Shown here piece by piece: positions 47,743-62,883 of a DNA stretch of 64,000 bases (within the stretch, counting starts at the first letter, position 1; each line of letters begins with the position of its first letter). The DNA lies in the NCBI GenBank assembly GCA_963701965.1, contig OY969695.1:3136001-3200000 (forward strand), in the 5' to 3' direction. The notes below the pieces were generated by a model. That model was not told the origin of the DNA. It ran no database searches and saw only the letters and a list, made by a program, of their open reading frames with translations. A program made the position numbers and the translations under genes. The DNA comes from an uncultured Gemmatimonadales bacterium. GTDB lineage: Bacteria; Gemmatimonadota; Gemmatimonadetes; Gemmatimonadales; Gemmatimonadaceae.

Positions 47743-49341
47743 TTACCCTTTGACCACTGGGTAGGCCGCCGCAAGTCGTAGCGCTTCCACGTCGAGTTCG
47801 TACTCGAGTGCCTGCAAGACGTCATCGCCGATCGCGCCTATATCGCGAAGGGCGATGACTTCGTCTCGTTCGGCGGTCAATGCCTCCTTTCTGAGCCACC
47901 CATACGACTGGGCCTCGTCGGGCGCGCAGTCGCCCGTATCGCTTCCCTCGGCCAGTCGATGCGTGCGCACGCGATAGCTGTCGACCAGTCGGTTGACCAG
48001 AGTGTCCGGGGCGCGGCCGCGCAGCTGCTCGAGGCGTTCCAGCGCGGCGTCCGCGGCACGGAGTCGAGCCGAGGCTTCTTCCCGCCGTTCGTCGTCGCCA
48101 CCGCGCACGTGGAGGCGCCGCAAAACAAAGGGCAGCGTCCCGCCCTGTACGACGAGCGTCACCAGGATCACCGCGAACGTCAAATACAAGATCAGCGCTC
48201 GCGCGGGGAAGGGCCCCCCGGCCTGCGTGGCTTCCGGGAGGGCGAGCGCCGCGGCCAAGCTCAGGACACCGCGCATCCCAGCCCAGCCGATGATCGTCGT
48301 CTCCTTCCACGTGGGATATCGATCCGGTTGGTTCCCATAGATGCGCAGCCAGCGTGGGACGAGCACGCCGAAGGGGATATACGCCAACCGGACCCCGACC
48401 ACGACGAGGCTGATCAACGCGCCGTACCAGAGCAGTGTGATCGGCGTCGCGTGCTGGGTCGGCGAGAGCGACGGCCACACGACCGACAGCGCGAGCCCGG
48501 TCAGGATGAACAACGTGCCGTTGAGCAGGAAGACCAACACGTCCCAGACGGCGCGCGCCTCTACCCGTGAGCGCGGCGTGGCATGCCGGCTCATGAACTG
48601 GCGCAGCGTGAGGCCGGCCGCCGCGGCACTCAGTATTCCGGAGACGCCCAGGACGTCGGCCGACAAGTAGGCCGCATAGGGCGTCAGCAGTGTGAGCGCG
48701 ATAGTGGTGAGCTCGTCGTTCGTAAGGCGCAGGAGACGACCAGCGCACCAGCCGATCGCGATACCCACGACGGTGCCACCCACGATCACCAGCGTGAAAT
48801 CGAGCGGGGCGTGACTTGCCGAGAACGTGCCGACCACCGCGGCGGCGACGGCGACGTGTGACGCGGCCAGGCCCGTGGCATCGTTCACGACGCTTTCGCC
48901 TTCCAGGATCGTTACGATCCGGCGGGACACGCCAAGACGCCGGGCCACGGCGGTCGCCGCGACCGGATCGGTCGGCGACACCACCGCGCCGAGGACGAAC
49001 GCCGCCGGCCAACTCAGCCCGGGGATCATCGCGTGAGCGACGCCAGCGACGCCAAAGATGGTGGCCAGGACCAGTCCCAACGCCAACGCGCCAATCGGGC
49101 GAAGGTTTGCCCGAAAGTCGCGCAGGGATGTCAGGTAGCCCGCGGAGAAAATCAGCGGCGGGAGGAAAACGAAGAACACCACGTCGGGCGCGAGCGTGAT
49201 CTGCGGGAGGCCCGGGACCAAGCTCAGGACAAGTCCACCGAGGACCAGCAGGATCGGATACGGCAGTCCCAAACGCCGGGCGAGCGCGGCGATGCCGACG
49301 ACGAGGGACAGCAGACCGACGACGACGGTAACCGGGTGCAT
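47743..49341 (-). CDS. CPA1 family Na+/H+ antiporter (YjcE/NhaP-like)
   Basis: FLPPLIF, SPTDPVA, LEGESVVNDATG, WAGMRGVLSLAAAL. Confidence 0.92.
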   Translation of the reverse strand: MHPVTVVVGLLSLVVGIAALARRLGLPYPILLVLGGLVLSLVPGLPQITLAPDVVFFVFLPPLIFSAGYLTSLRDFRANLRPIGALALGLVLATIFGVAGVAHAMIPGLSWPAAFVLGAVVSPTDPVAATAVARRLGVSRRIVTILEGESVVNDATGLAASHVAVAAAVVGTFSASHAPLDFTLVIVGGTVVGIAIGWCAGRLLRLTNDELTTIALTLLTPYAAYLSADVLGVSGILSAAAAGLTLRQFMSRHATPRSRVEARAVWDVLVFLLNGTLFILTGLALSVVWPSLSPTQHATPITLLWYGALISLVVVGVRLAYIPFGVLVPRWLRIYGNQPDRYPTWKETTIIGWAGMRGVLSLAAALALPEATQAGGPFPARALILYLTFAVILVTLVVQGGTLPFVLRRLHVRGGDDERREEASARLRAADAALERLEQLRGRAPDTLVNRLVDSYRVRTHRLAEGSDTGDCAPDEAQSYGWLRKEALTAERDEVIALRDIGAIGDDVLQALEYELDVEALRLAAAYPVVKG

Positions 49342-49407: not shown

Positions 49408-50868
49408 TTATGGGCAGGTCTTGGTGAACGAGCCGCCGCGCGCCGCGGTTTCAGCGAACGGGATCGGCTTGTTCGTGGTGAAAAGGTCCTTCTGCGTCGT
49501 GCCAACCCATGTCTTGTCCTGCTCGGCGGCCACGCCGTACATCCGGATCGCGATCATGCGGTCCCCGCTGGCCTCGAACGCCGTCGAGATCTGCTGCTCG
49601 TGGAGCAGCGCGTCCCGGGTCGCGGTGTACGTGTTCCCGATTCTGGCCGTGGGAAGGCCGCCGACTGTCGTGCGCACATCGTTGATGAGCGTGGCCGCGT
49701 TGGTGAGGTTCCCGAGCCCGATCTGAATCTCCGCGCGAACGAGGACGAGCTCCTCGTTGCGCACGATCGGGATGAACGAGCCAGGCGTCGGGTAGTACGC
49801 GTACACGTACGGCGAGGCGGCCGACGCATACGTCGGCTGCTGTATCGGGTGCGGGTTGACCGCGAACTTCGTCTTCCAGCGTAGATCATTGATCGTGTCC
49901 TGGCTCGACGGAATCGCGTTGAGGACGATGAACGTGCCACCGTTCGCGTTGATCGGATTGACCTGATCGCCCGACGTCGCGCTGAAATTGTGCGATACGG
50001 TGAAGTTGTCGTTGGTGAATCCGCCGGACGGGGTCGGTGCAAGCGCCCCAGGGTTGTACAGCGCCGACGCGGCAATCGCACTGTCGGCCCGTAGGAGCGC
50101 CGCCTGGTCGGGCGACCCGGGCGACGATGCCGTCGGCGGGTTGCCACCAGGGCCCCGCGCGATCGCGTACGCCAGCTCGAGGCCCGCCTTGCCGGCCAAC
50201 GCGCGGTTGAACGCGGAGAAACTCGTGCTGGTGGCGCTGACCGCCTTGAACCCCGACGGCAGGTTGACCGGGAGCGGAGTCGACCCCGCTGTCACAAGCT
50301 GCGCGTTGGCCGAGTCGAGCAGCGCGACGATGTACTTCCACCCGTCGCGGACGCAGAGACCAGGCGGCGGGCCCGCCGGCGTTTGCGGCATGATCGCGAT
50401 ACCGGCCGTGTCATGATCCTCGGCGATCATCATGTAGTTCAGCGCCTCGATTGTCTGGACGACGCCGACGATCGCCGCGTCCTGCGCCGGCGAAAAGGCC
50501 GGGACCACGCTGGGCAATGTCGCAATGATCTGATGCGCCTGCAGGATGTCGGTGTAGAACTCGGCCCAGGCGACATTGAGGCTCCACGCCGGATCGATGG
50601 GCTGCAGGCCCAGCTCGTACAGAATGAACCGGGGCTCGGTATTCGTGTAGTTGGCGCCGTCGCGGGCGAATCCCGTCGCGTCGACGAGATACCCGAGGAG
50701 ATCGTTGCCGCGCATCTCGCCGACGAGACCCGTCATCGCGTTCTGAACACCGGGAGGTGAATTCGGAATCGACGTCGGCGCGGCGTAGAACGGGATGTCG
50801 GTATCCTTGCATGCGGCCGGTGCGATCAGCGTGATCGCGGCGACGGCCAGTGTGAGTGAGCGTCTCAT
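49408..50868 (-). CDS. RagB/SusD-family outer-membrane lipoprotein
   Basis: Lipobox PAAC, IVRNEELVLVRAE, INDVR, FEASGDR..IR, PIP.AE. Lies 2 bp after the SusC stop. Confidence 0.88.
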   Translation of the reverse strand: MRRSLTLAVAAITLIAPAACKDTDIPFYAAPTSIPNSPPGVQNAMTGLVGEMRGNDLLGYLVDATGFARDGANYTNTEPRFILYELGLQPIDPAWSLNVAWAEFYTDILQAHQIIATLPSVVPAFSPAQDAAIVGVVQTIEALNYMMIAEDHDTAGIAIMPQTPAGPPPGLCVRDGWKYIVALLDSANAQLVTAGSTPLPVNLPSGFKAVSATSTSFSAFNRALAGKAGLELAYAIARGPGGNPPTASSPGSPDQAALLRADSAIAASALYNPGALAPTPSGGFTNDNFTVSHNFSATSGDQVNPINANGGTFIVLNAIPSSQDTINDLRWKTKFAVNPHPIQQPTYASAASPYVYAYYPTPGSFIPIVRNEELVLVRAEIQIGLGNLTNAATLINDVRTTVGGLPTARIGNTYTATRDALLHEQQISTAFEASGDRMIAIRMYGVAAEQDKTWVGTTQKDLFTTNKPIPFAETAARGGSFTKTCP

Positions 50869-50870
50869 GG

Positions 50871-53800
50871 TCAGAATCCCAGGTCGAGGCCGAAGAAATA
50901 GCTGCGGGCCGGCGGGTAGCCGGTCACCTCTTGGCCGCGGGTGATTTGTTGATTCCCGTTGGCGCTGATCTCGGGGTCGAGACCGTCGTACTTGTACCAG
51001 TTGAAGACGTTATAGGCGGTGAACGACAGCTTGGCGCTCGTGATCCGCCCACGCGTGAACGCGAACACCCGGTTGGGGAGCGTGTAGCTGGCGGATAGCT
51101 GGCGCACCTTCACGAACGACGCGTCTTCGACGTAGATCGTCGGGTTCTTGTTGGACTGCGCGAACCGCTGCGCGCCCTTCGCCGAATCGCCCAGCAGGGT
51201 CAGACCGGCGCCATCGAAGTACAGGTCGGTGAGGTTGATCGCGCTCCCGCCGCGGCTCCAGTCGACGAGCCCATACAGCCGCACGGGTCCGAAGGTGATC
51301 TCATTGCCGAAGTCCATGCGATACGCTGGCTGGACGTCGCCGACTTGTTGCGGCAAGCCATTCGGCAGGATGGCCGAGGCATTCACGAGCTCGGAGACCG
51401 ACCGGCCGACGGCGAGAAATCCTTCGCCAAACCCGAACGTATTCCCGATCGGTCCGGGCGTGGTCGGCAGGGCATCGACGCGGCTGTAGTTCCGGTAGAA
51501 CGTGTTCGTCGAGACCCACGAGATCCCACCCAATTGTCGCATTTGCACTGGGGTCATGGTCAACGACAGCTCGATGCCCTGGTTCGTGAACTGGCCGCCG
51601 TTGAACCACTCGTTCTGATGTCCCTCGGTCGGCGGCACGCTGGCCTGGAGCAACAAGTCGGACAGGCGCTTCTGGTAGACGGTCGCCGAGAATTGGGCCC
51701 GCGAGTTGAACATCGTGAGATCGAATCCGGTCTCGATCTCGGTCTCGGCTTCCGGCCGGATGCCCGCGTCACCGAGGAGCGAGCTGACCCCGATGCCGTT
51801 CAATTCATTGTCCTGGGTGGGAACGAACGGCGTGTACTTCGCGCCATAAATCGGCAGGTTGCCCGATTGCCCGTAGGCCACGCGGAACTTGAGATCGTTG
51901 ATGGCCTTCGCGAACTCCGGTACGCGGTACGACGCCGAGAAGCGCGGGTAGTAGTAGAACTGGTCGATGACCCCGTCGGCGGTCGACCGCTCGCCGGTGA
52001 TACCACCGGTCAAGGCCAGGCGCGAGTCGAGCAGCAGCAGTTGCTCTTGCCCGTACCAGGACTGGTCGAGCTGCGCCGTCCGGAACAGGAAGTTGGTCTG
52101 TACGGTGCCGACGATCGGCGAGTTGACCCCGGCCAAGAGGTTTTGGCCGACCGTGACGGGCTCGGTCGTCGACCGGCGGTCGCGCGTGTACCCGATCGAC
52201 GTCGTCGCGTCGAGCCAGGAGAGCCCGGTGAAGTGGTGGCTCAGGTTGAACGAGTAGTTATAGTAGGTCGTCGTCGCCGTGTTGGACACCGACGCCCCCG
52301 GCAGCCCGCTGGGCTCGAGCTGCTCGACCTGGAGCGTTGGCGGGGCGTACAGCAGGTCGTTCAAGCTCGTGAGGTCGGCGCCGCCGATGACGGTGAGCTT
52401 GAGGTTCTGGTGCTCCTGCTGGAACACCGTCCAGTCGATCGTGCCGCCGCCGAGGAAGCGGCTGACGTTCTCCGGCGTCGCGATGAGCAGGGCATCGGCG
52501 AACGGGTTGGCGTTGCCAAACGGATTGGTCGGCCAGGCGCTGTTGGAGAGCGCATCCAGCCGCACGAACTGCGGGGTGGTGGAGAACACGTTGTACGGGC
52601 TGATCCCGATATTATCGTTGCCCGTGATGCCACGCCGCGTGAGGTCGTGCACGTAGCTCAGGTTGGCCGAGACCCGGATACTCGACGAGAGATCCTGGGA
52701 CACGTTGGAACGGATCGACTGTTTGTTGTAGCCGGTGTTGTTCTCGATGCCGTTGTCGTACTTGGTCGTCCCCGATAGGAAGTACTGCGTTTGCCCTTGC
52801 GTGCCGGACACGCTCACATCGGCTTCGTACGACGCCTGGTTGTTGCCGAACAACTGGCTCTGGAAGTCTTGCGGGCCGGCGAAGACCGACTTGATGAACG
52901 CGTTCGCGTCTGCCTGGGTCGCGTAGGTTTTCTTCGCCGCCGCATCGTCGTTCCAGTACCAATCCTGGGCGCTTTGCAGGGTCGGGAACGTCCGGAGCGG
53001 CAGCGTCCTGGCATCCTCGAAGTGACCCAGGCGCGTCGTGGCGCTCCATTGCGCCTTGCCCTCTTTGCCGTGTTTCGTCGTAATGATCACGACGCCCGCG
53101 GACGCCTTGGACCCGTAGATCGCGGACGCCGAGGCACCCTTGAGCACCTCGATCGACTCGATGTCGGATGGGTTGATGTCCGCGATGCGGTTGACGCCGC
53201 TGTCCTCGAAGCTCGGAGCGTTCGGGGTGAACACGCCCTCCGAGTTCGCGCCGCGACCAGAGCCGTTGATCGCGTTCATGTCGTTGTTGATCGTCTCGTT
53301 GTTGACGATGATGCCATCGACGACGTACAGCGGCTCGGCGTTGGCGTTGATCGACGTGATGCCGCGGATCTGCACTTGAAGGCCGCCGCCGGGCGCGCCG
53401 CCGTTGTTCGACTGAATGATCGCGCCGGTGACTTTGCCTTGGATCGCGTTCTCGATCGTCGGCGCCGGAACCTCGTTGACCTGGGCCGACGTCACGACGG
53501 CAACGGCATTCGCGGCATTGCGCGACGACACCGTGGTTGCGACGCCGGTGATCACCTGTTGTTCGAGCTTGAGGACGTCCCGCTCCAACACCACCTGGAC
53601 GTCCGTCTGACCGGCATTCAACGGCACGGTCATCTGTCGATAGCCAATGCGCCGCACCGTGACACTCTTGGCATCGGCGGGGAGCCGGAGCGCGAATGCT
53701 CCGCTGTCGTTCGTCAATGCACCGATCGTCGTACCGGTGACCGTCACTTGCGCGGCGGGAATCGCCATCGCGTTGGCCGCGTCGGTCACGTGTCCCGTCA

Positions 53801-53885
53801 GTCGCGTGCCGGGTTGCTGCGCCCCGACCGCGCTCGCAATGAACAGTCCGAGCCATCCCACTGATCGCACACCAATTCGTTTCAT
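50871..53885 (-). CDS. SusC/RagA-family TonB-dependent receptor
   Basis: GGAPGGG..IRG, PLYVVDG, DINPSDIESIEVLKGASASAIYGSKASAGVVIITTK, KFRVAYGQSGN, C-terminal Phe. Confidence 0.95.
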   Translation of the reverse strand: MKRIGVRSVGWLGLFIASAVGAQQPGTRLTGHVTDAANAMAIPAAQVTVTGTTIGALTNDSGAFALRLPADAKSVTVRRIGYRQMTVPLNAGQTDVQVVLERDVLKLEQQVITGVATTVSSRNAANAVAVVTSAQVNEVPAPTIENAIQGKVTGAIIQSNNGGAPGGGLQVQIRGITSINANAEPLYVVDGIIVNNETINNDMNAINGSGRGANSEGVFTPNAPSFEDSGVNRIADINPSDIESIEVLKGASASAIYGSKASAGVVIITTKHGKEGKAQWSATTRLGHFEDARTLPLRTFPTLQSAQDWYWNDDAAAKKTYATQADANAFIKSVFAGPQDFQSQLFGNNQASYEADVSVSGTQGQTQYFLSGTTKYDNGIENNTGYNKQSIRSNVSQDLSSSIRVSANLSYVHDLTRRGITGNDNIGISPYNVFSTTPQFVRLDALSNSAWPTNPFGNANPFADALLIATPENVSRFLGGGTIDWTVFQQEHQNLKLTVIGGADLTSLNDLLYAPPTLQVEQLEPSGLPGASVSNTATTTYYNYSFNLSHHFTGLSWLDATTSIGYTRDRRSTTEPVTVGQNLLAGVNSPIVGTVQTNFLFRTAQLDQSWYGQEQLLLLDSRLALTGGITGERSTADGVIDQFYYYPRFSASYRVPEFAKAINDLKFRVAYGQSGNLPIYGAKYTPFVPTQDNELNGIGVSSLLGDAGIRPEAETEIETGFDLTMFNSRAQFSATVYQKRLSDLLLQASVPPTEGHQNEWFNGGQFTNQGIELSLTMTPVQMRQLGGISWVSTNTFYRNYSRVDALPTTPGPIGNTFGFGEGFLAVGRSVSELVNASAILPNGLPQQVGDVQPAYRMDFGNEITFGPVRLYGLVDWSRGGSAINLTDLYFDGAGLTLLGDSAKGAQRFAQSNKNPTIYVEDASFVKVRQLSASYTLPNRVFAFTRGRITSAKLSFTAYNVFNWYKYDGLDPEISANGNQQITRGQEVTGYPPARSYFFGLDLGF

Positions 53886-53943
53886 GCCTCTTCCCTCGTG
53901 AGATGAGTGTTGCGCGGGAAAAGGTGCCCAGGCCCAACATCGT

Positions 53944-53991
53944 GGTCCAATGAAGTTTTGTCGTGATCTATCACGTCGCGTGATCGATGAA
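53944..53991 (-). promoter_or_regulatory. LysR operator/-35 upstream of susC
   Basis: 40/48 identical to 59807-59854. Contains the T-N11-A dyad ATCACG-N3-CGTGAT and minus-strand TTGGAC. Confidence 0.8.
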
Positions 53992-54112
53992 CATCGCGCC
54001 GTCGGACCGCGTAATCGTTGTGGCGAAAGGCTTTGGTCTGACTCACATTGCACGAGCACTGCGTACGCAGTCGTAGTAACTATTCGGTCAAGGACACCAT
54101 CCGGAGGTCATC

Positions 54113-55429
54113 GTGACTCGGTACGGCTCGCTGTTGTTGGGGTGTGTGTTGCCAATGTGTGCCGCTGGCCAATCACATTCTGATCCGGTCGTGATGATCG
54201 CGATCAATGGTCTTCGACCCGGCGATCTGACGAGCGACGCGACCAAGGATTGGCACGTGCCCGTGTTGCGCGGATTGATACGCAATGGCGCGGCAGCCTC
54301 GGGTGTGCGCGGCGTGTTGCCCACGCTCACGCTGCCCAGCATGATGACGCTTGTTACCGGAACCTCGCCAGGTCATCACGGAGTCGTGAACAACGTCCAG
54401 TGTGGCGAGGAGGCGCGCGCCAATGGCGGATACTACTGGTACGCGCGCAATGTGAAGGTCGAGACCCTCTGGGAAGCGGCGCGCCGCAAAGGGCTCAAGA
54501 CGGCAAACGTTGGATGGACGTCCACCGTCGGCGCGTCGGTCGACCGCAATCTGGCGGAGGTGTGGCCCGCGACGTCCGGATCGCAGTATGCCCTGCAAGA
54601 CTCGTCGTCGACCCCGGGACTCTTAGCCCAGCTCGATCCGCGCGCGGCCAATGCCGCCGGCTCGTACCTCATGGACGATGACCGGCGCACGGTCTACGCC
54701 GAGACGCTCATGGCATCGTATCGACCCGATCTTCTCACGGTGTTCTACGAGAATGTGGACAACATGGAACACAAGACCGGCCTCGATACACCTGAGGATC
54801 GTCACGCGCTCGAGCACATCGACAGCTTGGTCGGCCGGTTGGTCTCAGCGGCGAGACGCCAACACCCCGGCGTGACGATCGTGGTGGTCTCGGATCATGG
54901 GTTCGCGTCGGCGTCCACGGACATCAATCTCATCCCGGCTTTCGCCAATGCCGGCCTGCTGTCGCTGGACCAGGGCGCGGTGAAGAGTTGGACCGCGCGG
55001 CCGTGTGGCGCCGGAGGCTCGGCCTACGTGGTGCTCGCGGACTCCACGAATGCGACGGTCAAATCTCGTGTGGCGGCGCTGCTCGAGCGGCTCCGGACCG
55101 ATCAGGCCAACGGGATCGACCGGGTCTTGGGTCGCGCAGCCATCCAGGATGTCGGAGGCTGGAAGCAAGCCGACTTCATGGTCCTGTTCCGACCCGGCTA
55201 CGTGGCGGCGCGGTCTGCCGCAGCGCCCTTGCGCGCGACGAGCCAGTATCGTGGAATGCACGGATACTGGCCCGCCGATCCTGGCATGTATGCCACCTTC
55301 ATCATCGCCGGGAGCAACGTGCCGCTCAAAGGCGATCTCGGCGTCGTCGATATGCGAAACATCGGACCGACGGTCGCCGCGCTCCTCGGCACCCGGCTTA
55401 CATCGGCGACGGGGAAGTCCTTGTTTTGA
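54113..55429 (+). CDS. Exported nucleotide pyrophosphatase/phosphodiesterase (alkaline phosphatase superfamily)
   Basis: PTLTLPS..TLVTG, DNMEH, VSDHGF, MHGY. First metal ligand position reads INGLR. Confidence 0.88.
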   Translation: MTRYGSLLLGCVLPMCAAGQSHSDPVVMIAINGLRPGDLTSDATKDWHVPVLRGLIRNGAAASGVRGVLPTLTLPSMMTLVTGTSPGHHGVVNNVQCGEEARANGGYYWYARNVKVETLWEAARRKGLKTANVGWTSTVGASVDRNLAEVWPATSGSQYALQDSSSTPGLLAQLDPRAANAAGSYLMDDDRRTVYAETLMASYRPDLLTVFYENVDNMEHKTGLDTPEDRHALEHIDSLVGRLVSAARRQHPGVTIVVVSDHGFASASTDINLIPAFANAGLLSLDQGAVKSWTARPCGAGGSAYVVLADSTNATVKSRVAALLERLRTDQANGIDRVLGRAAIQDVGGWKQADFMVLFRPGYVAARSAAAPLRATSQYRGMHGYWPADPGMYATFIIAGSNVPLKGDLGVVDMRNIGPTVAALLGTRLTSATGKSLF

Positions 55430-56525
55430 TGAGCCCGCGGCTGGCCAGCAACCGCCACAGCCCGAAGGTCATGAGCGGAATGATGTAGATCAGGATGAAA
55501 TCGTAGGCGAAATAGCGATAGCCTTTAGCGATCAGCTCGACCAGGCCGAATTTGGTGGCCACAAAAATCGCGAGTACCAGCATCGCCAGGGCAATCCCCA
55601 CCCTGATCTGCTTGCTGAGACCGGAGTAGAGTGACGCCACGCGTTCGTTCACGGCGTGCACGGTACCGGTGCCGCTCTCTAGCAGTGCGCAGAAGACCAT
55701 GAGCTGGAACGCGTAGTGAAAGACCGGGATGTTGAACCGTTGGAGCATGAAGTCGGTCGGCAGGGGCGACGAGCCAATCTGCGGGTAGAACGCCAGCATC
55801 GAGAGGTAGTACAAAATGCCGGGGAGCATCGACACCGGGCCGCAGAACGCGCCGGCGATGAGCGCGTCTTTGGCGCTCGTGAGATGCCGGGCGACTGGCA
55901 GGATGATGATCGCGCAGAGCAACTGGTAACCAGCGTAGGTGATGCCGTTTGACACCCAACCGGTGGCCGGCACGTGGAGCGCGAAGCTGGCGGCAATGGA
56001 GTGGCCGAATTTCGTGAGGGCCAGCGTGATGAAGATGATATAGACGGTGTAGATGAGAATCGTCACGTAGCCGAAGAGCCGTTCCACCGCCACGTTCCCG
56101 AACGCGACGATCGCCGCAATAATCACAATGAGGAGGCTGGTGCCGATGACCACTGGCCATCCGAAGAGCGCCGCACCGATTTCGCCGGCCGCGGCACCGT
56201 AGACGGACAGCACGATGATGATGAACACCAAGTAGGAGACGTCGAAGATCACCCATCCCGGGCCGAGCAAGTTCCGGAAGAACGTACGATAGTCGAAGCT
56301 CTTCGTGGCCCAGGCAAAGAGAAAGGTGACGGCACAGACGACGCTGAAGAGCGTCGCCGCGAGTCCCATCCCCAGGAGTCCACCCACCGGACCCGATGGA
56401 ATGAAGAACTCCGCGAACTCCCGGCCTGTCGCATAGCCGCCGCCGATGATGACGGCCTTGAAGGCAAGGCTCGGAAGAACCAAGCGTTGGAACGACGTCG
56501 CTTTAGTGCTGTTCGTATTGGACAC
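55398..56525 (-). CDS. YkvI-family membrane transporter-like protein
   Basis: IIGGGYATGRE..EFF, about 10 TM helices, GLVELIAKGY. Confidence 0.85.
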   Translation of the reverse strand: MSNTNSTKATSFQRLVLPSLAFKAVIIGGGYATGREFAEFFIPSGPVGGLLGMGLAATLFSVVCAVTFLFAWATKSFDYRTFFRNLLGPGWVIFDVSYLVFIIIVLSVYGAAAGEIGAALFGWPVVIGTSLLIVIIAAIVAFGNVAVERLFGYVTILIYTVYIIFITLALTKFGHSIAASFALHVPATGWVSNGITYAGYQLLCAIIILPVARHLTSAKDALIAGAFCGPVSMLPGILYYLSMLAFYPQIGSSPLPTDFMLQRFNIPVFHYAFQLMVFCALLESGTGTVHAVNERVASLYSGLSKQIRVGIALAMLVLAIFVATKFGLVELIAKGYRYFAYDFILIYIIPLMTFGLWRLLASRGLIKTRTSPSPM

Positions 56526-57819
56526 GGCATCGCTCCCAGAGAGACTGAACGCTCATGCGAAGGTCGAGCAGTGGCGGCGGCAGCAATCGCGCCGGAGTAC
56601 CGAGCCCCTCAATGTCGGCGATGAGGGGATTGTCGCGACCGGTGGCCAAGTCGGCCGCCAAGAGCCCCGCGATCGTGCCCTTGGTGATGCCGACGCCATT
56701 CTGACACACCGCTAGATACACATGGGGCGCGCTTCGGCCAAAGGCCTGGGCGCGATTGCTCGACATGGCATCGTAGCCCACCCAGGTGTACTGGATCGTG
56801 CCAGACGGCAGCATCGGAAAGCGCGCGGCGAGACGTGCCGCGTGTCGGCGGCGGACGTCGCCCACGTCGACGTGCGCCGGCGCGAAGTTGGACGTGAACT
56901 GCACCGTCTGGCGGAGAAACAATCGGCGATCCTGCGTCAACCGCATCGCGGTGCCGCCGTTGACATGTACCGGCGTCAATCCCCAATCGCGATCCGTGCC
57001 CATCTGCTGGAGCTCACCGTCGGTCAAGGGCCGGGTGAGACTGGCGTAGATGGCATAGTTGAGCAGCTGGTCACGGCAAAAGCCGAACTCCCGCACAAAC
57101 CCATTCGTCGCCAGAATGACGGCGTCCGCCGTCAGCGATCCGTGCGGCGTGGTGAGGCGAATGCCGTTCTGGTGCTCGAACTCGATGACCGGGGAGTTCT
57201 CGTAGAGCACAACATTCGCCGGGAGCGTGTCGGCCAGCCCTCTCACCAGCGCCGCGGGATCCACCAGGACGCATCCCGGCAGATGCAGCGCCGCCGCGAA
57301 ATAGGTCGTCCCAATGCGATCGGCGAGCTCGCTCCGGTTGAGCCACGTACAGGGCTCACCGAGTATCTGGAGCTCGTCGGCGCCGGGCTCGAGGGAGCGC
57401 GCTTTGCCCTTGTCGGTGATCGCCGCGTGATACTTGCCGCGCCGGCTCCAATGGCAAGCGATCCCGTGATGCCGGATGATGCCTTCGAGAGACGAAAGCG
57501 CGGCGCGATTCAGCCGGACGTGCCGCTGCAGCGTGGCCAGGTCCGACGTGCCAATGTTGTAGGGCACGTCCTGGGCGATGCCGGAATTCCGGCCGGATGT
57601 GCCCGCCGCGACCTCCAACGCTTCGACGACCGCGATGCGGTCCTGCGGCCGGTTCTCGGCGAGACGCCGCGCCGCCGCCAACCCCGCAAAACCGGCCCCG
57701 ATCACCACGAACTCCGCGTGATGGGACCCCGCGAGGGCGGGGGTCGCGCGACGCGGCGGCAGAATCATGGTCCAGCCGTTGGGGCTATCGTTGCGCGGCA
57801 GCGTCGTGATGCGCGGCAT
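56503..57819 (-). CDS. FAD-dependent oxidoreductase, DAO/DadA/PuuB-like
   Basis: VIGAGFAG, GTSGRNSG, VILATNG, CQNGVGITKGT. Confidence 0.88.
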   Translation of the reverse strand: MPRITTLPRNDSPNGWTMILPPRRATPALAGSHHAEFVVIGAGFAGLAAARRLAENRPQDRIAVVEALEVAAGTSGRNSGIAQDVPYNIGTSDLATLQRHVRLNRAALSSLEGIIRHHGIACHWSRRGKYHAAITDKGKARSLEPGADELQILGEPCTWLNRSELADRIGTTYFAAALHLPGCVLVDPAALVRGLADTLPANVVLYENSPVIEFEHQNGIRLTTPHGSLTADAVILATNGFVREFGFCRDQLLNYAIYASLTRPLTDGELQQMGTDRDWGLTPVHVNGGTAMRLTQDRRLFLRQTVQFTSNFAPAHVDVGDVRRRHAARLAARFPMLPSGTIQYTWVGYDAMSSNRAQAFGRSAPHVYLAVCQNGVGITKGTIAGLLAADLATGRDNPLIADIEGLGTPARLLPPPLLDLRMSVQSLWERCRVQYEQH

Positions 57820-58808
57820 CAGGGACCCGGTGCGTGTGCCAGGAGACCCGTCACCGCTTCAATGATCGCCTCGGTCGTGGGCACGACTCGCTCTTCCATC
57901 CGTGGGCTCATGGGGATCGGCACTTCCAACGCGCCCAGTCGCTTGATGGGCGCTTGAAGGGAGGAGAAAGCGATATCGGCCAGGCTCGCGGCGATCTCGC
58001 CCCCAATGCCGCCGATGGTATTGGCCTCGTGCACGATGAGCACCCGCCCGGTCTTGCGGACCAATGCCGCGATCGTGTCCATATCGAGTGGCCGCAACGT
58101 CCGAGGATCGACGACTTCGACGGAGATGCCATCGGCCGAGAGCACGCCTGCGGCGACGAGGGCCCGCTGCACCATCGCGCCGATCGCGACGACCGTGACA
58201 TCGTCGCCCTCACGCTTCACCTCGGCGGAGCCCAGCGGAATCGTATAGTCGGTCGTGGGAACGGGTCCCCGCACGCCATACAGCCGCTTCGGCTCGAAGA
58301 AGACGACCGGGTTGTTGTCCCGAATGGACGACTTGAGCAGGCCTTTGACGTCGTAGGGGGTCGATGGCATCACGACTTTGAGCCCGGGCACATGGGCGAA
58401 CATCGCCTCATTGCTCAGCGACATCAGCGGGCCGCCACTCGGCCGGAAACCGGACGACACGCGGAAGACCATTGGGGCGCTGGCGCGACCGTCATAGAGG
58501 TAGGCCATCTTCGCGGCCGACGTGACCACGTGGTCCATGGCCGTGAGCATGACGTCGGCGAGTCCCATCTCCAGCACCGGACGAAATCCCCGGACCGCGG
58601 CGATGACGGAGGCGCCAACGAATCCGGGCTCGGAGATCGGCGTTTCGATCACGCGATCCGGACCGAACGCCTCCATGAGGCCGAACGTGGCGCCGACGAG
58701 CCCACCAAACACGCCCACATCCTCTCCCATCAAATACACAGTCTGGTCTCGGCGCATCTCCTCGGCCAACGCCTCGGTGATGGCTTCGCGATACGAGATC
58801 TCACGCAT
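57819..58808 (-). CDS. 2-oxoacid/acetoin dehydrogenase E1 beta subunit
   Basis: GEDVG..GG, ETPISE, PGLKVVMPSTPYD, EVVDPRTLRPLD. Confidence 0.92.
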   Translation of the reverse strand: MREISYREAITEALAEEMRRDQTVYLMGEDVGVFGGLVGATFGLMEAFGPDRVIETPISEPGFVGASVIAAVRGFRPVLEMGLADVMLTAMDHVVTSAAKMAYLYDGRASAPMVFRVSSGFRPSGGPLMSLSNEAMFAHVPGLKVVMPSTPYDVKGLLKSSIRDNNPVVFFEPKRLYGVRGPVPTTDYTIPLGSAEVKREGDDVTVVAIGAMVQRALVAAGVLSADGISVEVVDPRTLRPLDMDTIAALVRKTGRVLIVHEANTIGGIGGEIAASLADIAFSSLQAPIKRLGALEVPIPMSPRMEERVVPTTEAIIEAVTGLLAHAPGP

Positions 58809-58817
58809 TGCGTCGTC

Positions 58818-59777
58818 CTAGCGGTAAACGTGAGTCAAACCAACCTCCGGGGCGTCCAACGGCGATCCCTCCGCGAACCCGATACAATCCCTGACGGTGG
58901 CGAGCGCCGCATCGTCGATCGCCTGCAACGTGTGCGCATCGGCCAACCCGAGCGTGGTGAGCCGGTTGCCGAGACGGGTGATGGGGCAGCGCGCCTTCCA
59001 GTGCGCCAGTTCTTCATCGGAGCGCGAGGATTCATTCGGCGCCAGCGTCGAGTGCGCGGTCCAGCGATACGTCTGACACTCGATCAGGCTTGGGCCCTGC
59101 CGGCTACGCGCCCGGGCAATGGCGCGGTCCATGACCTCACCGATGGCTTCGACATCGTTCCCGTCGACCAGTTCGCCTGGAATGCCGTACGCCGCCGCCC
59201 GCCGCCACACCGACCCGCCGGCCGTCGTCTTCTCGATCGGTGAGGACTTCGCGTAGAAGTTGTTCTCACAGACGAAGATGACGGGAAGCTTCCAGATCGC
59301 GGCCAGGTTCAGCCCCTCGTGAAAGTCGCCGCGGTTCGCCGCGCCCTCGCCGAATATCGCGACCGTCACTTCGTCGGTTCGGCGAAGTTTCGAGGCGAGC
59401 GCCGAGCCCGCTCCGAATGGAATGATTGCCCCCACGATCGACGTGGTGCTCAGCACGCCCTTTGCCAGGTCACCGACGTGAAAGATCGGCATGCGTCCGC
59501 GGGTGGGACTATCGGCCGTTCCATAGAGTCCCGCCATGATCTGGCGCGGCGTGAAGCCCCGGACGAGCAACGTGCCGACGCCGCGATAATGTGGAAACAC
59601 GAAATCGGAGGGGCGCAGCTTGTAACTTGCGGCCACGCCAACGGCTTCTTGGCCTATTCCCGCATGGAAGTTGTCGAACTTCCCGGACTCGGACAGCGTG
59701 ATCGCGGCCTCCTGGAAGCGCCGCGCCAGCACCATGACCTCGAAGATCTCGAGTAACTGCTCGTCGGTGTACACCAT
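58818..59777 (-). CDS. ThDP-dependent dehydrogenase E1 alpha subunit
   Basis: GQEAV, HYRG, FGEGAANRGDFHEGLN...CENN ThDP motif, TYRWTAHS. Confidence 0.92.
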   Translation of the reverse strand: MVYTDEQLLEIFEVMVLARRFQEAAITLSESGKFDNFHAGIGQEAVGVAASYKLRPSDFVFPHYRGVGTLLVRGFTPRQIMAGLYGTADSPTRGRMPIFHVGDLAKGVLSTTSIVGAIIPFGAGSALASKLRRTDEVTVAIFGEGAANRGDFHEGLNLAAIWKLPVIFVCENNFYAKSSPIEKTTAGGSVWRRAAAYGIPGELVDGNDVEAIGEVMDRAIARARSRQGPSLIECQTYRWTAHSTLAPNESSRSDEELAHWKARCPITRLGNRLTTLGLADAHTLQAIDDAALATVRDCIGFAEGSPLDAPEVGLTHVYR

Positions 59778-59806
59778 GCAACAAATGTGGCCGTGGTCTT
59801 GAGTCG

Positions 59807-59854
59807 GGTCCAATGAAGATTTATCGTGATCTATCAGGAAACCTTATCGATGAA
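59807..59854 (-). promoter_or_regulatory. LysR operator/-35 between lysR and E1 alpha
   Basis: GGTCCAATGAAG.TTT.TCGTGATCTATCA-N9-ATCGATGAA is shared with 53944-53991 and overlaps the lysR ATG. Confidence 0.8.
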
Positions 59855-60746
59855 TTTCACCCACCTCCGAAGCTTCCTCGCCGTGGCGAGGGCGGGCAGC
59901 GTCACCGCGGCCGCCAGCGAGCTGCATCTGACGCAGCCATGCGTCTCGTTCCATATCAAGGCGCTGGAACAGGACCTGGGCCTCAAGCTCTTCGTCCGGG
60001 TGGGACGGCGCATCGAGCCCACCGAGGCCGCGCGGGTGGTGCTGCCGTATGCGGAAGCGATCTTCAATGTCAGCGACCGCCTGCACCGCGAAATTCGGAG
60101 TCGATCATCCCACCGGTCGGGGACTGTCCATCTGGGATCGGGGGTGTTCTTCGCGGAACACTATCTCCCCGAGATTCTTGCCACATTTCGGAAACAATTT
60201 CCGCAGGTCGGCATCCACTGCGAGACGACGCAGACCCGTGCGCTACTGCGCAAGGTCCAGAGCTTCGACTTCGACTTTGCGTTCCTTGGTGACGTGGAAG
60301 ACGACCCGCAGCTCGAGGTGGTGGACCTCGCCTATGATGAGATCGTGGTGATCGTCGCGCCCGACCACCCGTTGAGCGGCCGTGCCACGATTCCCATCGA
60401 GGAGTTGGCGAATTGGCCCCTGATCGGGTACCCGGACGGATCGGAAACCCAGGCGATCGTCGACAATCTCGTGAAGGCCGAGCGGGTCAGACCGGCCACG
60501 GTGCTGGTGTTTGCCAGCTCCGAGGGGCTGAAACGCGCGGTCGAGGCCGGCATTGGGATCGCGCTCATTCCGCGGAAGCCTGCCGCCCGCGAGCTTGCCG
60601 CGGGCTCGCTCAAGAGCCTGCGGATCCGCGGGATGTCATTGCGCCGGCGCTATACCCTGGTCGCGCATCGGGACAATCCCATGTCGGCATCGGCGAACGC
60701 CTTTCGCAACATTGTCCTCAAATGGAAGGCGCGGCAAAAAGGGTAG
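59850..60746 (+). CDS. LysR-family transcriptional regulator
   Basis: MNFTHLRSFLAVARAGSVTAAASELHLTQPCVSFHIKALEQDLG HTH plus substrate-binding domain. Confidence 0.95.
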   Translation: MNFTHLRSFLAVARAGSVTAAASELHLTQPCVSFHIKALEQDLGLKLFVRVGRRIEPTEAARVVLPYAEAIFNVSDRLHREIRSRSSHRSGTVHLGSGVFFAEHYLPEILATFRKQFPQVGIHCETTQTRALLRKVQSFDFDFAFLGDVEDDPQLEVVDLAYDEIVVIVAPDHPLSGRATIPIEELANWPLIGYPDGSETQAIVDNLVKAERVRPATVLVFASSEGLKRAVEAGIGIALIPRKPAARELAAGSLKSLRIRGMSLRRRYTLVAHRDNPMSASANAFRNIVLKWKARQKG

Positions 60747-60802
60747 ATTTCCGCTCGCAGTTGTGCGCATCGTGGGCTCCACCTCATTCAAAGAGTCGCC
60801 GC

Positions 60803-61771
60803 ATGCTGCCTTTTCTGTTGTTGGCTCTCGCGACCAAGACCGAGACGATCCGGATTCCGAGCCCCGTTTCCGGGCTCGAGTTGGCCCTGCATCACGAATA
60901 CCTCGTCGCGTCCCCAGCTCAGCCGCGACTGGTGGTGCTGTTCGCCGAAGGCAGTGCCGTTCCGACGGCCGGGAATGCGGCGTTCAAAATCGATGGCCTG
61001 TCGTGGATGGACGATCTCGCGCGACATGGCTACGACGTGTGGTCGATCGACTATCTGGGGTACGGCGCATCCAGTCGATACACGGCTCCAGGCAGCGACA
61101 GCGCGGCGGGGAATGCGGCGGCCTGCGCGGCGCAGCTCGAGCGCGCGGCTCGATTCATCATCCAGCGGCAGCACGTCCCCAAGCTGTTCGTCATTGGCGA
61201 CTCGTTCGGCACCGAGGTGGCGGGCGTGTTCGCGACGCACTCGGGCGAGCTCATCGATCGGCTGGTGCTGTTCGCTCCGGTCACTCCGCCACCGACCGAC
61301 ACGCGCGGCTTCGCGTCAGCAGATACGACGCCTGTCGCCGCGCACAACTTCGTCACGCCAGAGGACATCTGGACGGCGTACTCGAGCTGGCTACCGAAAG
61401 GTGAATACGCCGGAATCGATCACGATTCGTTCATCCATGTCTGGGGTCCCATGTACCTCGCGACCGACCCCACGAGCGGATCGCGGACGCCGCCGAGCGT
61501 CCAAGTCACGACCGGGCCCGATGCGGACGACCGGGAGATCGCCGCGGGGCGGTTCCCCTACGATCCGGCGCAGATCCGCGTGCCGACGATGATTCTCATG
61601 GGCGAATGGGACAGTATCGCGACGGAGGACGGCGCGCAGCGCTTGTTCAACGGGCTCACGCAGGCGCCGCTCAAACGACGCGTCGTCATCGGCGGCGGGA
61701 CACACATCGTTCAACTCGAGCGGCGGAGCCGGATGCAGGCGTTTGAAGAAGTGCGCGCGTTCCTGAAATGA
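60803..61771 (+). CDS. Exported alpha/beta serine hydrolase
   Basis: DYLGYGAS, GDSFG nucleophile elbow, GEWD, GTH. Confidence 0.85.
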   Translation: MLPFLLLALATKTETIRIPSPVSGLELALHHEYLVASPAQPRLVVLFAEGSAVPTAGNAAFKIDGLSWMDDLARHGYDVWSIDYLGYGASSRYTAPGSDSAAGNAAACAAQLERAARFIIQRQHVPKLFVIGDSFGTEVAGVFATHSGELIDRLVLFAPVTPPPTDTRGFASADTTPVAAHNFVTPEDIWTAYSSWLPKGEYAGIDHDSFIHVWGPMYLATDPTSGSRTPPSVQVTTGPDADDREIAAGRFPYDPAQIRVPTMILMGEWDSIATEDGAQRLFNGLTQAPLKRRVVIGGGTHIVQLERRSRMQAFEEVRAFLK

Positions 61772-62883
61772 CAGAGGCCAATATCCGCAATAGTGGAGGC
61801 GCTGCCGACGACGTGGAGACGCCGGCTGTGCTCATCGACTTGGATATCTTCGAGCGCAATCTGGACCGGATGGCCGCGTACACCAGTGCGCACCGGCTCA
61901 GCCTCCGCCCCCATGTGAAGACGCACAAAGCCCCCGCCGTCGCTCGCCAGCAGCTCGGGCGTGGCGCCGTCGGGCTCACGTGTGCGACGGTGACCGAGCT
62001 GGAGGTGATGGCCGCCGTCACCGACGATCTGTTGTTCGCCTATCCGCCCGTCGGCCCACGACGACTGCTCCGTCTCGAAGCGGTCGCCAAACGCCGACGA
62101 CTCACGGTCACCGTCGAATCCCAGGAGGCGATCGACGCGCTTGCCATGGTCGCGTGCAGCGCCAAGCAGCGCGTCCGCGTCCTCCTCGAGATCAATGTGG
62201 GGATGCACCGAACCGGTGTCGCCGGCGTGCACGAGGCCGTGGCTCTCGCGCGGTACGCGGCCGAACGGTCCGAGCTCGAGTACGCCGGCATCGCGTACTA
62301 TCCGGGCCACATCCGCCAGCATGTCCAATCGCAGGATGCGCAGTTCGAGACGCTGAATAGTCACCTCGAGACCCTTGTTGCCGCCCTCGGCACCGCCGGT
62401 TTGGCCCCGGGGATGGTGAGCGGCGGGTCGACTCCGACGGTGTGGCGGACTCACGAGCTCGCAGGAACTACCGAGATCCGGCCGGGCACGTACGTATACA
62501 ACGACGTCACGACAGCGGCGATCGGCGCGTGCGCCTGGACCGACTGCGCGGCGACGATCGTCACGACGGTGGTGAGCACCGCCGTCGGCCAGGCGGTCGT
62601 CGACGCCGGGACAAAGGCTCTGGGCCGAGAGCCGATCCGCGGCGTGGCGCAGGATGGCTTCGGGGTGGTCATCGATCACCCGGAAGTGACGGTCGCCCGC
62701 ATGTCGGAAGAACACGGCGTGCTCGATCTCGGCAGCACATCGTGGCGACCATCGATCGGCGACCGTGTGCGGATCATTCCGAACCACGTGTGCGTCGCTA
62801 TGCACCTCTACGACTCCGTCCATGCCGTGCGCGATGGGAATGTCACAGCCGTGTGGCCGGTGGCGGCGCGCGGACGGTTATGA
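61768..62883 (+). CDS. DSD1/D-threonine aldolase family PLP enzyme (alanine racemase fold)
   Basis: LRPHVKTHK, HRTG, YPGH, SGGSTP, EIRPGTYVYND, DAGTK, SEEHG, IPNHVC. ATGA-coupled to the hydrolase. Confidence 0.92.
   Translation: MTEANIRNSGGAADDVETPAVLIDLDIFERNLDRMAAYTSAHRLSLRPHVKTHKAPAVARQQLGRGAVGLTCATVTELEVMAAVTDDLLFAYPPVGPRRLLRLEAVAKRRRLTVTVESQEAIDALAMVACSAKQRVRVLLEINVGMHRTGVAGVHEAVALARYAAERSELEYAGIAYYPGHIRQHVQSQDAQFETLNSHLETLVAALGTAGLAPGMVSGGSTPTVWRTHELAGTTEIRPGTYVYNDVTTAAIGACAWTDCAATIVTTVVSTAVGQAVVDAGTKALGREPIRGVAQDGFGVVIDHPEVTVARMSEEHGVLDLGSTSWRPSIGDRVRIIPNHVCVAMHLYDSVHAVRDGNVTAVWPVAARGRL

Follow-up and report, generated by a model that had tools for sequence, protein, structure and literature searches.

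A rare five-gene cassette with a histidine-less E1, and a predicted LysR-type promoter repeated before a SusC/SusD pair, in an uncultured Gemmatimonadales bacterium

LysR-type regulators are described as recognizing T-N11-A sites with an imperfect dyad near the start of the divergently transcribed regulator gene, where a recognition site is combined with an activation site (PMC8407307). For the E1 enzymes of 2-oxoacid dehydrogenases, the account in PMC2663715 gives His128 of the beta subunit (His128beta) as conserved in all E1s known to its authors, and the H128Q variant of the G. stearothermophilus enzyme as near wild type in the dichlorophenolindophenol (DCPIP) assay with less than 5% of the complex activity. 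Pyruvate dehydrogenase (PDH)-like alpha/beta pairs, AviB1/AviB2 and Pau11/Pau12, have in turn been proposed for the branching of antibiotic sugars, as PMC4425429 presents them. Here we analyze a locus that combines relatives of these systems with a SusC/SusD pair. It lies in a window of 64,000 nucleotides, the whole stretch of DNA under study, from an uncultured Gemmatimonadales bacterium (assembly GCA_963701965.1, contig OY969695.1, positions 3,136,001 to 3,200,000). The block of interest holds ten genes, among them lysR, the genes for E1alpha, E1beta, a flavin adenine dinucleotide (FAD) oxidase and the membrane protein YkvI, and the susC-susD pair (Table 1).

The conserved unit is lysR-E1alpha-E1beta-FAD oxidase-ykvI, a rare cassette, and not the whole block. 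The overall explanation that we find best, and hold to be somewhat better than even, is that this five-gene cassette shares a LysR promoter with susCD and with a distant DinB-family gene (dinB), and that its E1, which lacks His128, would act on an amine-derived product independently of a lipoyl partner.

Table 1. Features of the block (coordinates in the window; L004 and L005 are the two closest loci, G005 a congener genome)
Feature	Position	Strand	Evidence and remarks
SusD-like lipoprotein (486 aa, lipobox Cys20)	49408..50868	-	Foldseek SusD matches; Atlas neighbours 0.99; 74% to G005
SusC/RagA TonB-dependent transporter (1004 aa)	50871..53885	-	TIGR04056 432 bits, cut-off 368; 83% to G005:C283
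Promoter copy a	53921..53991	-	T-N11-A dyad 53970-53984; second half-site 53950-53964; putative -35 53945-53950; putative -10 CACCTT 53921-53926; function inferred
Secreted nucleotide pyrophosphatase/phosphodiesterase (NPP), type I phosphodiesterase	54113..55429	+	PF01663; alignment to 2gsn; Asn at Asp of DGLR motif; pathway link doubtful
YkvI-like membrane protein, putative importer; core cassette	55398..56525	-	No Pfam or NCBIfam match, named solely from Atlas neighbours (0.98); 75% in L004/L005; dN/dS 0.13-0.17
D-amino acid oxidase (DAO)-family FAD oxidase/dehydrogenase; core cassette	56503..57819	-	PF01266; best NCBIfam AmaA 116/600, TIGR03329 111/633 bits; 80-82% in L004/L005
E1 beta; core cassette	57819..58808	-	Met129 at His128beta, Val86 at Phe85beta, Glu60 kept; dN/dS 0.12-0.13
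E1 alpha (319 aa); core cassette	58818..59777	-	Thiamine diphosphate (ThDP) motif and His242 kept; likely leaderless; 83-84% in L004/L005
Promoter copy b	59784..59854	-	T-N11-A dyad 59833-59847; second half-site 59813-59827; putative -35 59808-59813; putative -10 CACATT 59784-59789; overlaps lysR start
LysR regulator, divergent; core cassette	59850..60746	+	PF00126 and PF03466; 86% in L004/L005; next representatives 79%, then 47%
Alpha/beta hydrolase (GDSFG); local neighbour	60803..61771	+	Family scan; not beside lysR in L004/L005
DSD1/D-threonine-aldolase-fold pyridoxal phosphate (PLP) enzyme; local neighbour	61768..62883	+	Family scan; closest congener relatives 55-58%

The cassette and the promoter element

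An alignment of the oxidase was used to fetch 105 loci, of which two, the metagenomic contigs L004 and L005, are close and 103 are distant (45-57% identity). In both close loci the gene order lysR, E1alpha, E1beta, oxidase, ykvI is retained, together with the promoter element described below. The cassette proteins are 75-87% identical in amino acid sequence to those of L004 and L005, and the ratio of nonsynonymous to synonymous change (dN/dS) is 0.12-0.18, as under purifying selection. The flanks differ: in L004 and L005, an efflux adaptor or a CGNR regulator lies past lysR and a secreted beta-propeller protein past ykvI. Because flanking genes are shared between the two loci, they count as one lineage. 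The locus had originally been read as resembling a polysaccharide utilization locus (PUL); synteny does not support a conserved unit of this kind, since only the five cassette genes recur together.

Relatives of the oxidase and of E1alpha (62-74%) occur on equal-sized contigs in five cases (12583, 17655, 23267, 80675, and 340858), an indirect sign that the two genes travel together. Searches for the cassette comprised about 900 relative-genome searches with overlapping samples, and their outcome is to be read as "not found" rather than "absent": the oxidase was found in 0 of 100 relative genomes at 1e-30, LysR in 0 of 100 at 1e-45, and E1alpha in 0 of 400 genomes of the phylum at 1e-85, with five candidates scored per genome.

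The original prediction placed a 48-bp element before both susC and the E1 operon, in the same orientation relative to transcription, and we confirmed this. Positions 53944-53991 (copy a) and 59807-59854 (copy b) form a direct repeat with 40 of 48 positions identical; both copies are on the plus strand and both target genes on the minus strand. Copy b contains the lysR ATG at 59850 and overlaps the start of that gene. When the 5.1-Mb genome was scanned with copy b, allowing no gaps, a third copy (c) emerged outside the window at G000:C1:1185549-1185596 (33/48) and no further site above 27/48. This copy, about 2 Mb from the window, precedes the DinB-family gene, whose product has a signal-peptide-like start and would be secreted; the element was not found in the DNA upstream of four DinB paralogues in the same genome. 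A weight matrix for which only the E1 promoter and the orthologous promoters of L004 and L005 were used gave scores of 60.3 for the susC site, 48.6 for the dinB site and 20.6 for the next-best site in the genome. A 27-nt pattern derived from the three sites of this genome matched none of 400 other genomes of the family. One sub-threshold match to an RNA family was seen at the element across the three loci and was treated as chance. At the third locus (G000:C1:1185549-1186200, L002:5550-6201), the side opposite the DinB-family gene is occupied by a split MacB/FtsX permease gene.

As a control, we counted 33 families of 40- to 70-nt repeats among the 1934 intergenic regions of the genome. Because short intergenic repeats are this common here, a two-copy repeat is not rare by itself, and the argument is carried by the internal pattern of the element. 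Five copies were compared: a (susC), b (E1) and c (dinB), and the orthologues of b in L004 and L005. Followed along the direction of transcription, every copy shows a 15-bp T-N11-A dyad and, 20 bp further, a second half-site that abuts the putative -35, with TTGG at -35, an 18-nt spacer, and the hexamer CACATT or CACCTT. The dyad arms match at 3-5 of 5 positions across copies; copy a is a perfect 5/5 despite six differences from copy b inside the dyad. Copies a and b agree at 40/48 positions in the element, 6/18 in the spacer between -35 and -10, and 5/6 in the hexamer, and copy b and its L004 orthologue at 43/48, 15/18, and 6/6, respectively. The element of copy b is identical to those of L004 and L005 at 43/48 and 44/48 positions, against 41-46% synonymous-site change in four of the five cassette genes. 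The contrast in identity between element and spacer gave p values of 0.0002 (a-b) and 0.046 (c-b) in Fisher tests, the element edges having been chosen by similarity. Because of that choice the hexamer is the cleaner test: the chance of a match at this fixed position in intergenic DNA is 0.003 for 5/6 and 0.00016 for 6/6.

A conserved dyad with a CAC(A/C)TT hexamer at a fixed distance and a diverged spacer is, judged from the sequences, what a LysR-activated promoter under selection would show. The shared LysR-type promoter that had been proposed before susC and the E1 operon is thus supported by the anatomy of its copies, and the observation is stronger than first reported, with three copies that have promoter anatomy. 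It is very probable that LysR binds and activates the E1 operon, and probable that it does so at susCD and dinB as well. The E1alpha gene most likely begins at ATG 59777, where both orthologues start, and the start given before was moved accordingly. In each of the three orthologues this start follows the hexamer by 6-7 nt and no ribosome-binding site is obvious, so the E1alpha message is likely leaderless; transcripts are predicted to begin about 7 nt past each CAC(A/C)TT, which for E1alpha falls at or next to the ATG. The susC gene retains a purine-rich site ahead of its ATG.

The E1 enzyme and the FAD oxidase

Alignment to solved E1 structures places Met129 of E1beta at His128beta of the G. 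stearothermophilus enzyme and Val86 at Phe85beta, so that the ordinary E1 action assumed in the original prediction meets a beta subunit without His128. The equivalents of Glu59beta and His271alpha, the alpha/beta ThDP fold and the GDG-type motif are all kept, and the alpha histidine matching His271alpha is kept across the clade. We scored the 120 best E1beta homologues at the His128 column, two of these rows being the protein itself and a near-copy. The top 81 comprise 56 with glutamine, 23 with methionine, one with threonine and one with histidine; among the other 39, 38 have histidine and one glutamine. In a midpoint-rooted tree of 49 rows (every third of P0268-P0340, P0344, every second of P0348-P0386, and three paralogues from the same genome), the 25 rows without the histidine form a single clade (support 99/96). 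The four other E1beta loops examined in this genome all keep it.

No E2 or E3 gene was found within the window, L004 or L005. Because His128beta is replaced by methionine, the H128Q variant keeps decarboxylation but loses complex activity, and the block has no E2, we predict, by analogy with that variant, that this E1 likely catalyzes its reaction independently of lipoyl. Literature searches over titles and abstract openings listed no paper on a natural clade of His-less E1s.

The oxidase has no signal-peptide-like start. It reaches 116.5 bits against NF050086 (AmaA), for which the cut-off is 600, and is also far under the cut-off of TIGR03329. Its structural model has a mean predicted local distance difference test score (pLDDT) of 50, and the structure matches, which place it no more closely than in the glycine oxidase/DAO fold, were not used for the substrate; a single-sequence search gave no relative among solved structures. 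At the 95 distant oxidase loci with called neighbors, we found within three genes MttB (28 of 95), a flavoenzyme of the old yellow enzyme type (16 of 95), TmpB (6 of 95) and TmpA (4 of 95), with at least one of these at 46 of the 95. Such neighbors point to N-methylated or N-substituted amines. For the cassette itself, an N-substituted amino acid or amine would be the substrate class with about even probability. To this extent the proposal of an amine- or amino-acid-type oxidase feeding a thiamine enzyme is supported. The distant oxidase relatives (L006-L108) also recur with a TetR gene (29/95) and a EutQ-like cupin gene (28/95) in addition to MttB, as a separate conserved module. By eye, we noted a look-alike of methylmalonate-semialdehyde-type aldehyde dehydrogenases at G000:C1:3205027-3206529, 5 kb past the end of the window and without the element.

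The SusC/SusD pair and the surrounding genes

The genes susC and susD stand in tandem with a 2-nt gap. SusD matched no Pfam or NCBIfam family and was identified by fold: the top Foldseek matches of its model (mean pLDDT 61) are SusD proteins, the best with an E value of 4e-6 and a template modeling score of about 0.5, and the commonest taxon among its Atlas neighbors at 0.99 is Gemmatimonadota. Of the gene identities given earlier, those of SusC, NPP, the DAO-family oxidase, E1alpha and E1beta, LysR, the alpha/beta hydrolase and DSD1 were upheld by family models, that of SusD by fold and that of YkvI by Atlas neighbors; it was the E1alpha start that had to be changed.

The susCD family occurs in all five congeners examined, with up to nine matches per genome. 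The closest pair, in G005 (83% for SusC, 74% for SusD), and pairs at 71-72% in G001, G003 and G004 lie near genes for DUF5916 and PMT-type glycosyltransferase proteins. Seven related susC genes have a TTGAC-17-TA promoter and not the element, and homology to them ends at about the ribosome-binding site. Because the closest susC relatives have another promoter and homology stops there, we regard a gain of the promoter specific to this lineage as most likely, with susCD drawn from the expanded family of the host itself and put under the LysR promoter. Directly next to the element lies what may be left of the ancestral susC promoter motif (1 of 1500 random segments, the comparison having been chosen after the fact), and the 84 nt past it weakly resemble the 5' end of lysR (29 of 2000 random segments). 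A decayed lysR after copy a was considered as a candidate and is at most weakly suggested: its similarity was matched by 53 of 5000 random segments at the DNA level, by 29, 60, and 95 of 2000 against the lysR of this genome and the two orthologous genes, and by 12 of 5000 at the protein level, BLASTP gave no alignment, and the candidate competes with the motif remnant. In these seven promoters (upstream of susC in L143-L146, L153, and L154), the -10 hexamer lacks the T at its last position, and most of them have, immediately before the -35, a GTCGCG(A/T)TGTC-like motif, a candidate operator.

A family scan detected no carbohydrate-active enzyme (CAZyme) among the ten genes, which had been taken as evidence for a non-carbohydrate substrate. 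Yet 20 of the 21 other SusC loci in the genome also have no glycoside hydrolase among their nearest genes, and because CAZyme-free SusC loci are the norm here, this absence says nothing special about the pair. The 103 genes nearest to these 21 loci include one glycoside hydrolase (GH15) and no LysR; four of the loci have genes for an extracytoplasmic function (ECF) sigma factor plus FecR. Literature searches listed no study on SusCD substrates in Gemmatimonadota. Several further observations concern other SusC loci. A gene for a CPA1 Na+/H+ antiporter follows a susC-susD pair at two places 50 kb apart (47743-49341 in the window, and G000:C1:3236330-3243300), and multicopper oxidase genes follow three SusC/SusD loci (L166, L154, L168). 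SusC genes at G000:C1:656490, 721803, 2043060, 4457939, and 4734163 match the model in separate frames or pieces, as pseudogenes or assembly frameshifts would. The SusC matches at G000:C1:1560491-1563379 and 1555004-1557931 each report an open frame of 2859 aa, where gene calls show separate SusC and SusD.

The remaining genes appear to be local neighbors. The secreted NPP had been assigned a role in periplasmic deblocking, a step that its sequence and position do not support. In the alignment to 2gsn, the threonine, the Asp/His pairs and the last histidine align, and asparagine replaces the aspartate of the DGLR motif, which we take to be a metal ligand; no copy of the element faces the NPP gene, and the protein had no match at E<=1e-10 in the five congeners. 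It also has PSMM in place of PNHY; together with the asparagine in the DGLR motif, this suggests an enzyme that may be inactive or retuned. The hydrolase gene follows lysR after 56 nt and overlaps the DSD1 gene (gap of -4 nt). DSD1 had been read as a sign of D-amino acids. This reading is not supported, as three of its five closest congener relatives lie within one gene of a 2-keto-3-deoxygalactonokinase-like gene, as for amino-sugar-acid lyases: one immediately precedes a Pfam-confirmed dgoK, and the other two lie one gene from a similar gene. A DSD1 paralogue in the same genome adjoins a dgoK-like gene as well. OngC, a PLP enzyme of DSD1-like fold type (fold-type III), deaminates an amino-sugar acid according to PMC9537276, and because of this a DSD1-like enzyme need not mean that the substrate is a non-carbohydrate. 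At G000:C1:1118044-1120609 and L158-L160, DSD1-family genes lie close to genes of dgoK-like and aldolase-like type, which suggests an amino-sugar-acid route in the genus. NPP, hydrolase and DSD1 do not accompany the cassette in L004 or L005. In congeners, the matches to the susCD pair, the Na+/H+ antiporter, DSD1 and the genes on the flanks are spread over different contigs, the picture of a mosaic region and not of one conserved PUL. That NPP, hydrolase and DSD1 belong to the pathway is doubtful; they are probably local neighbors.

Weighing the explanations, and comparison with known systems

In the model that we favor, an inducer would bind LysR, which would repress its own overlapping start and activate three promoters. 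YkvI would import an N-substituted amino acid or amine, and the oxidase, going by the chemistry of its family, would form an imine that hydrolyzes to a 2-oxoacid or aldehyde. The His-less E1 would then decarboxylate or cleave this product with no handover to a lipoyl E2, as family chemistry and the mutant data suggest. The weakest step is the one in the envelope, where a larger precursor would be supplied or processed by SusCD and the DinB-family protein; we put the chance that SusCD transports a precursor of the cassette substrate a little below even.

A number of observations weigh against this model. At the promoters, the element-versus-spacer contrast between copy c and L004 is not significant (p 0.13), the second half-site reads C-N11-A with a dyad of just 3/5 or 1/5, and a sigma-70 consensus scan of the window passes none of these promoters. 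There is also an alternative lysR start, GTG 59826, with a frame open in all three orthologues, in which case part of copy b may be coding. The link between susCD and the cassette is present in one genome only; L004 and L005 stop 1.9 and 1.1 kb past ykvI, so susCD may lie further out. The cassette has no aldehyde dehydrogenase, and the oxidase loci behind the hint at a substrate class are just 45-57% identical and related to one another. The 103 distant oxidase loci, of which those named are mostly from Alphaproteobacteria and many are short, gave no E1beta, LysR, YkvI, or Sus match with ten queries counted, which tells against the model as regards E1beta. A search for the gene context of the Gln-type E1beta clade, run with no positive control, returned nothing in sets of 25, 33, and 401 genomes, plasmids (best 56%), and viral contigs. 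Two E2-like genes elsewhere in the genome, beside His-bearing E1 genes, could serve in trans. Finally, PMC2663715 reports H128N and H128A as inactive in decarboxylation as well as in the complex assay, and a Met variant was not part of that study; by analogy, the Met-form E1 may not act on a 2-oxoacid, and another type of substrate is possible.

These points leave room for other explanations of the enzyme. The E1 could be that of an ordinary oxidative 2-oxoacid or acetoin dehydrogenase that borrows E2 and E3 from the host, with another residue standing in for His128beta. The two E2-like genes, the retained His271alpha equivalent and the automatic names (pyruvate/acetoin dehydrogenase) fit this, which we nonetheless hold improbable: H128Q of the G. 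stearothermophilus enzyme had less than 5% complex activity (PMC2663715), the whole clade has lost the histidine, and no E2 accompanies the cassette in any of the three loci. Alternatively, the substrate might be an aminoethyl-X compound (phosphonate, phosphate or sulfonate), which the oxidase would convert to X-acetaldehyde and from which the His-less E1 would eliminate X. Sulfoacetaldehyde acetyltransferase eliminates an X group in this manner in taurine breakdown. Sub-threshold matches to aminophosphonate families were obtained for the oxidase (TIGR03329), LysR (TIGR03339, 173/341) and NPP (PhnA), TmpB lies beside 6 of the 95 distant oxidase loci, a phosphoesterase-type gene adjoins ykvI in both lineages, and the polar contact that His or Gln would make to the 2-oxo group, as PMC2663715 leads us to think, is impossible for Met. 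Every one of these family matches is far under its cut-off, however, family scans found no phosphonate transporter or phosphate acetyltransferase gene in the block, and beta-propeller phosphoesterase genes occur elsewhere in the genome too; this route is unlikely.

How far the locus extends is the other matter to be weighed. The entire 13.5-kb block could be one PUL-like pathway, as the original prediction had it, with uptake by SusCD, deblocking by NPP and hydrolase in the periplasm, import, oxidation and decarboxylation of a modified D-amino acid or amine. The shared promoter, the adjacency of all the genes and the tight spacing of lysR, hydrolase and DSD1 would suit it, as would the different secreted beta-propeller protein past ykvI in L004 and L005, with a phosphoesterase match in L004, and the existence of peptide-importing SusCD pairs such as RagAB (described in 10.1101/755678). 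Set against this are the lack of NPP, hydrolase and DSD1 beside the cassette in L004 and L005, the mosaic region, the asparagine in the NPP motif, the dgoK-like neighbors of DSD1 relatives and the ordinariness of CAZyme-free SusC loci in this genome, and we give the scheme a low probability. At the opposite extreme, the susC and dinB copies could be left-overs of rearrangement, with susCD unregulated, or regulated by chance, and unrelated to the cassette substrate. The mosaic accessory region, the 33 repeat families and the possible ancestral motif remnant with its weakly lysR-like continuation agree with such an origin, and we know of no functional tie between a DinB-family protein and the pathway. 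That the element and the -10 hexamer were kept with the spacer at chance identity, at two separate places, and that the dyad of copy a is perfect despite its differences from copy b, makes this hardly probable.

The favored model bears on three matters. For most SusC loci in the genome nothing hints at what is transported, and a pair tied into a small catabolic regulon offers a way in, from the LysR effector to SusD binding. The E1 would be a natural counterpart of the laboratory mutant that decarboxylates yet barely passes the acyl group to lipoate, and thus may offer new thiamine chemistry. With its three copies, the promoter provides a compact case, open to testing, of regulon growth by promoter copying. 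Somewhat unlikely, in our estimate, is the fuller account in which all of this comes together: a rare His-less-E1 cassette that acts on an amine-derived substrate by lipoyl-independent thiamine chemistry of an undescribed kind, a LysR promoter copied before two host envelope genes, and a generic Gemmatimonadota SusCD that has thereby come to serve a non-glycan pathway as its importer at the outer membrane, so that we would be looking at a utilization locus in mid-assembly.

All the parts have known families; what the literature searches (titles, abstract openings) did not find is a His-less E1 cassette combined with a recruited SusCD. With the PULs of Bacteroidota the locus shares the tandem susC-susD, the SusD fold and a shared regulator site; it differs in having no glycoside hydrolase in the block, a LysR-type promoter, a locus that does not appear to be conserved as a unit, and closest susCD relatives with other neighbors. 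Like RagAB of Porphyromonas gingivalis, for which 10.1101/755678 describes oligopeptide as substrate, the pair is proposed to serve a non-glycan substrate, and RagB is among the fold matches of SusD; unlike RagAB, to which identity is 10-12%, it stands beside a small-molecule catabolic cassette. The ong cluster of Pseudoalteromonas, as described in PMC9537276, likewise has a TonB-dependent transporter gene and a catabolic operon under one regulator, with the fold-type III PLP deaminase OngC, and differs from this block in its oxidized amino sugar substrate, in its use of a repressor, and in having no E1 or FAD oxidase. For the oxidase, the AmaA L-pipecolate oxidase (NF050086) and the putative aminophosphonate oxidoreductase TIGR03329 are the best curated matches, over nearly the full length, although its scores of 116/600 and 111/633 bits set it apart from both. 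The element agrees with the recognition site as given in PMC8407307, with T-N11-A in 5/5 copies; for the second, activation site of the 50-60-bp footprint, the conserved second half-site, which reads C-N11-A, is a candidate. The E1 resembles the heterotetrameric E1s of pyruvate and branched-chain 2-oxoacid dehydrogenases (PDB 1w85, 3duf, 1um9) in its fold family, ThDP motif, and Glu59beta and His271alpha equivalents, and departs from them in the changes of His128beta to Met, Phe85beta to Val, and Gln81-Phe82 to Gly-Leu and in the lack of E2/E3 in the block. From the biosynthetic, sugar-branching AviB1/AviB2 and Pau11/Pau12 it is distinguished by its neighbors, an amine oxidase and a putative importer; like those pairs as PMC4425429 presents them, it is a PDH-like alpha/beta pair proposed for chemistry other than the formation of acetyl-CoA.

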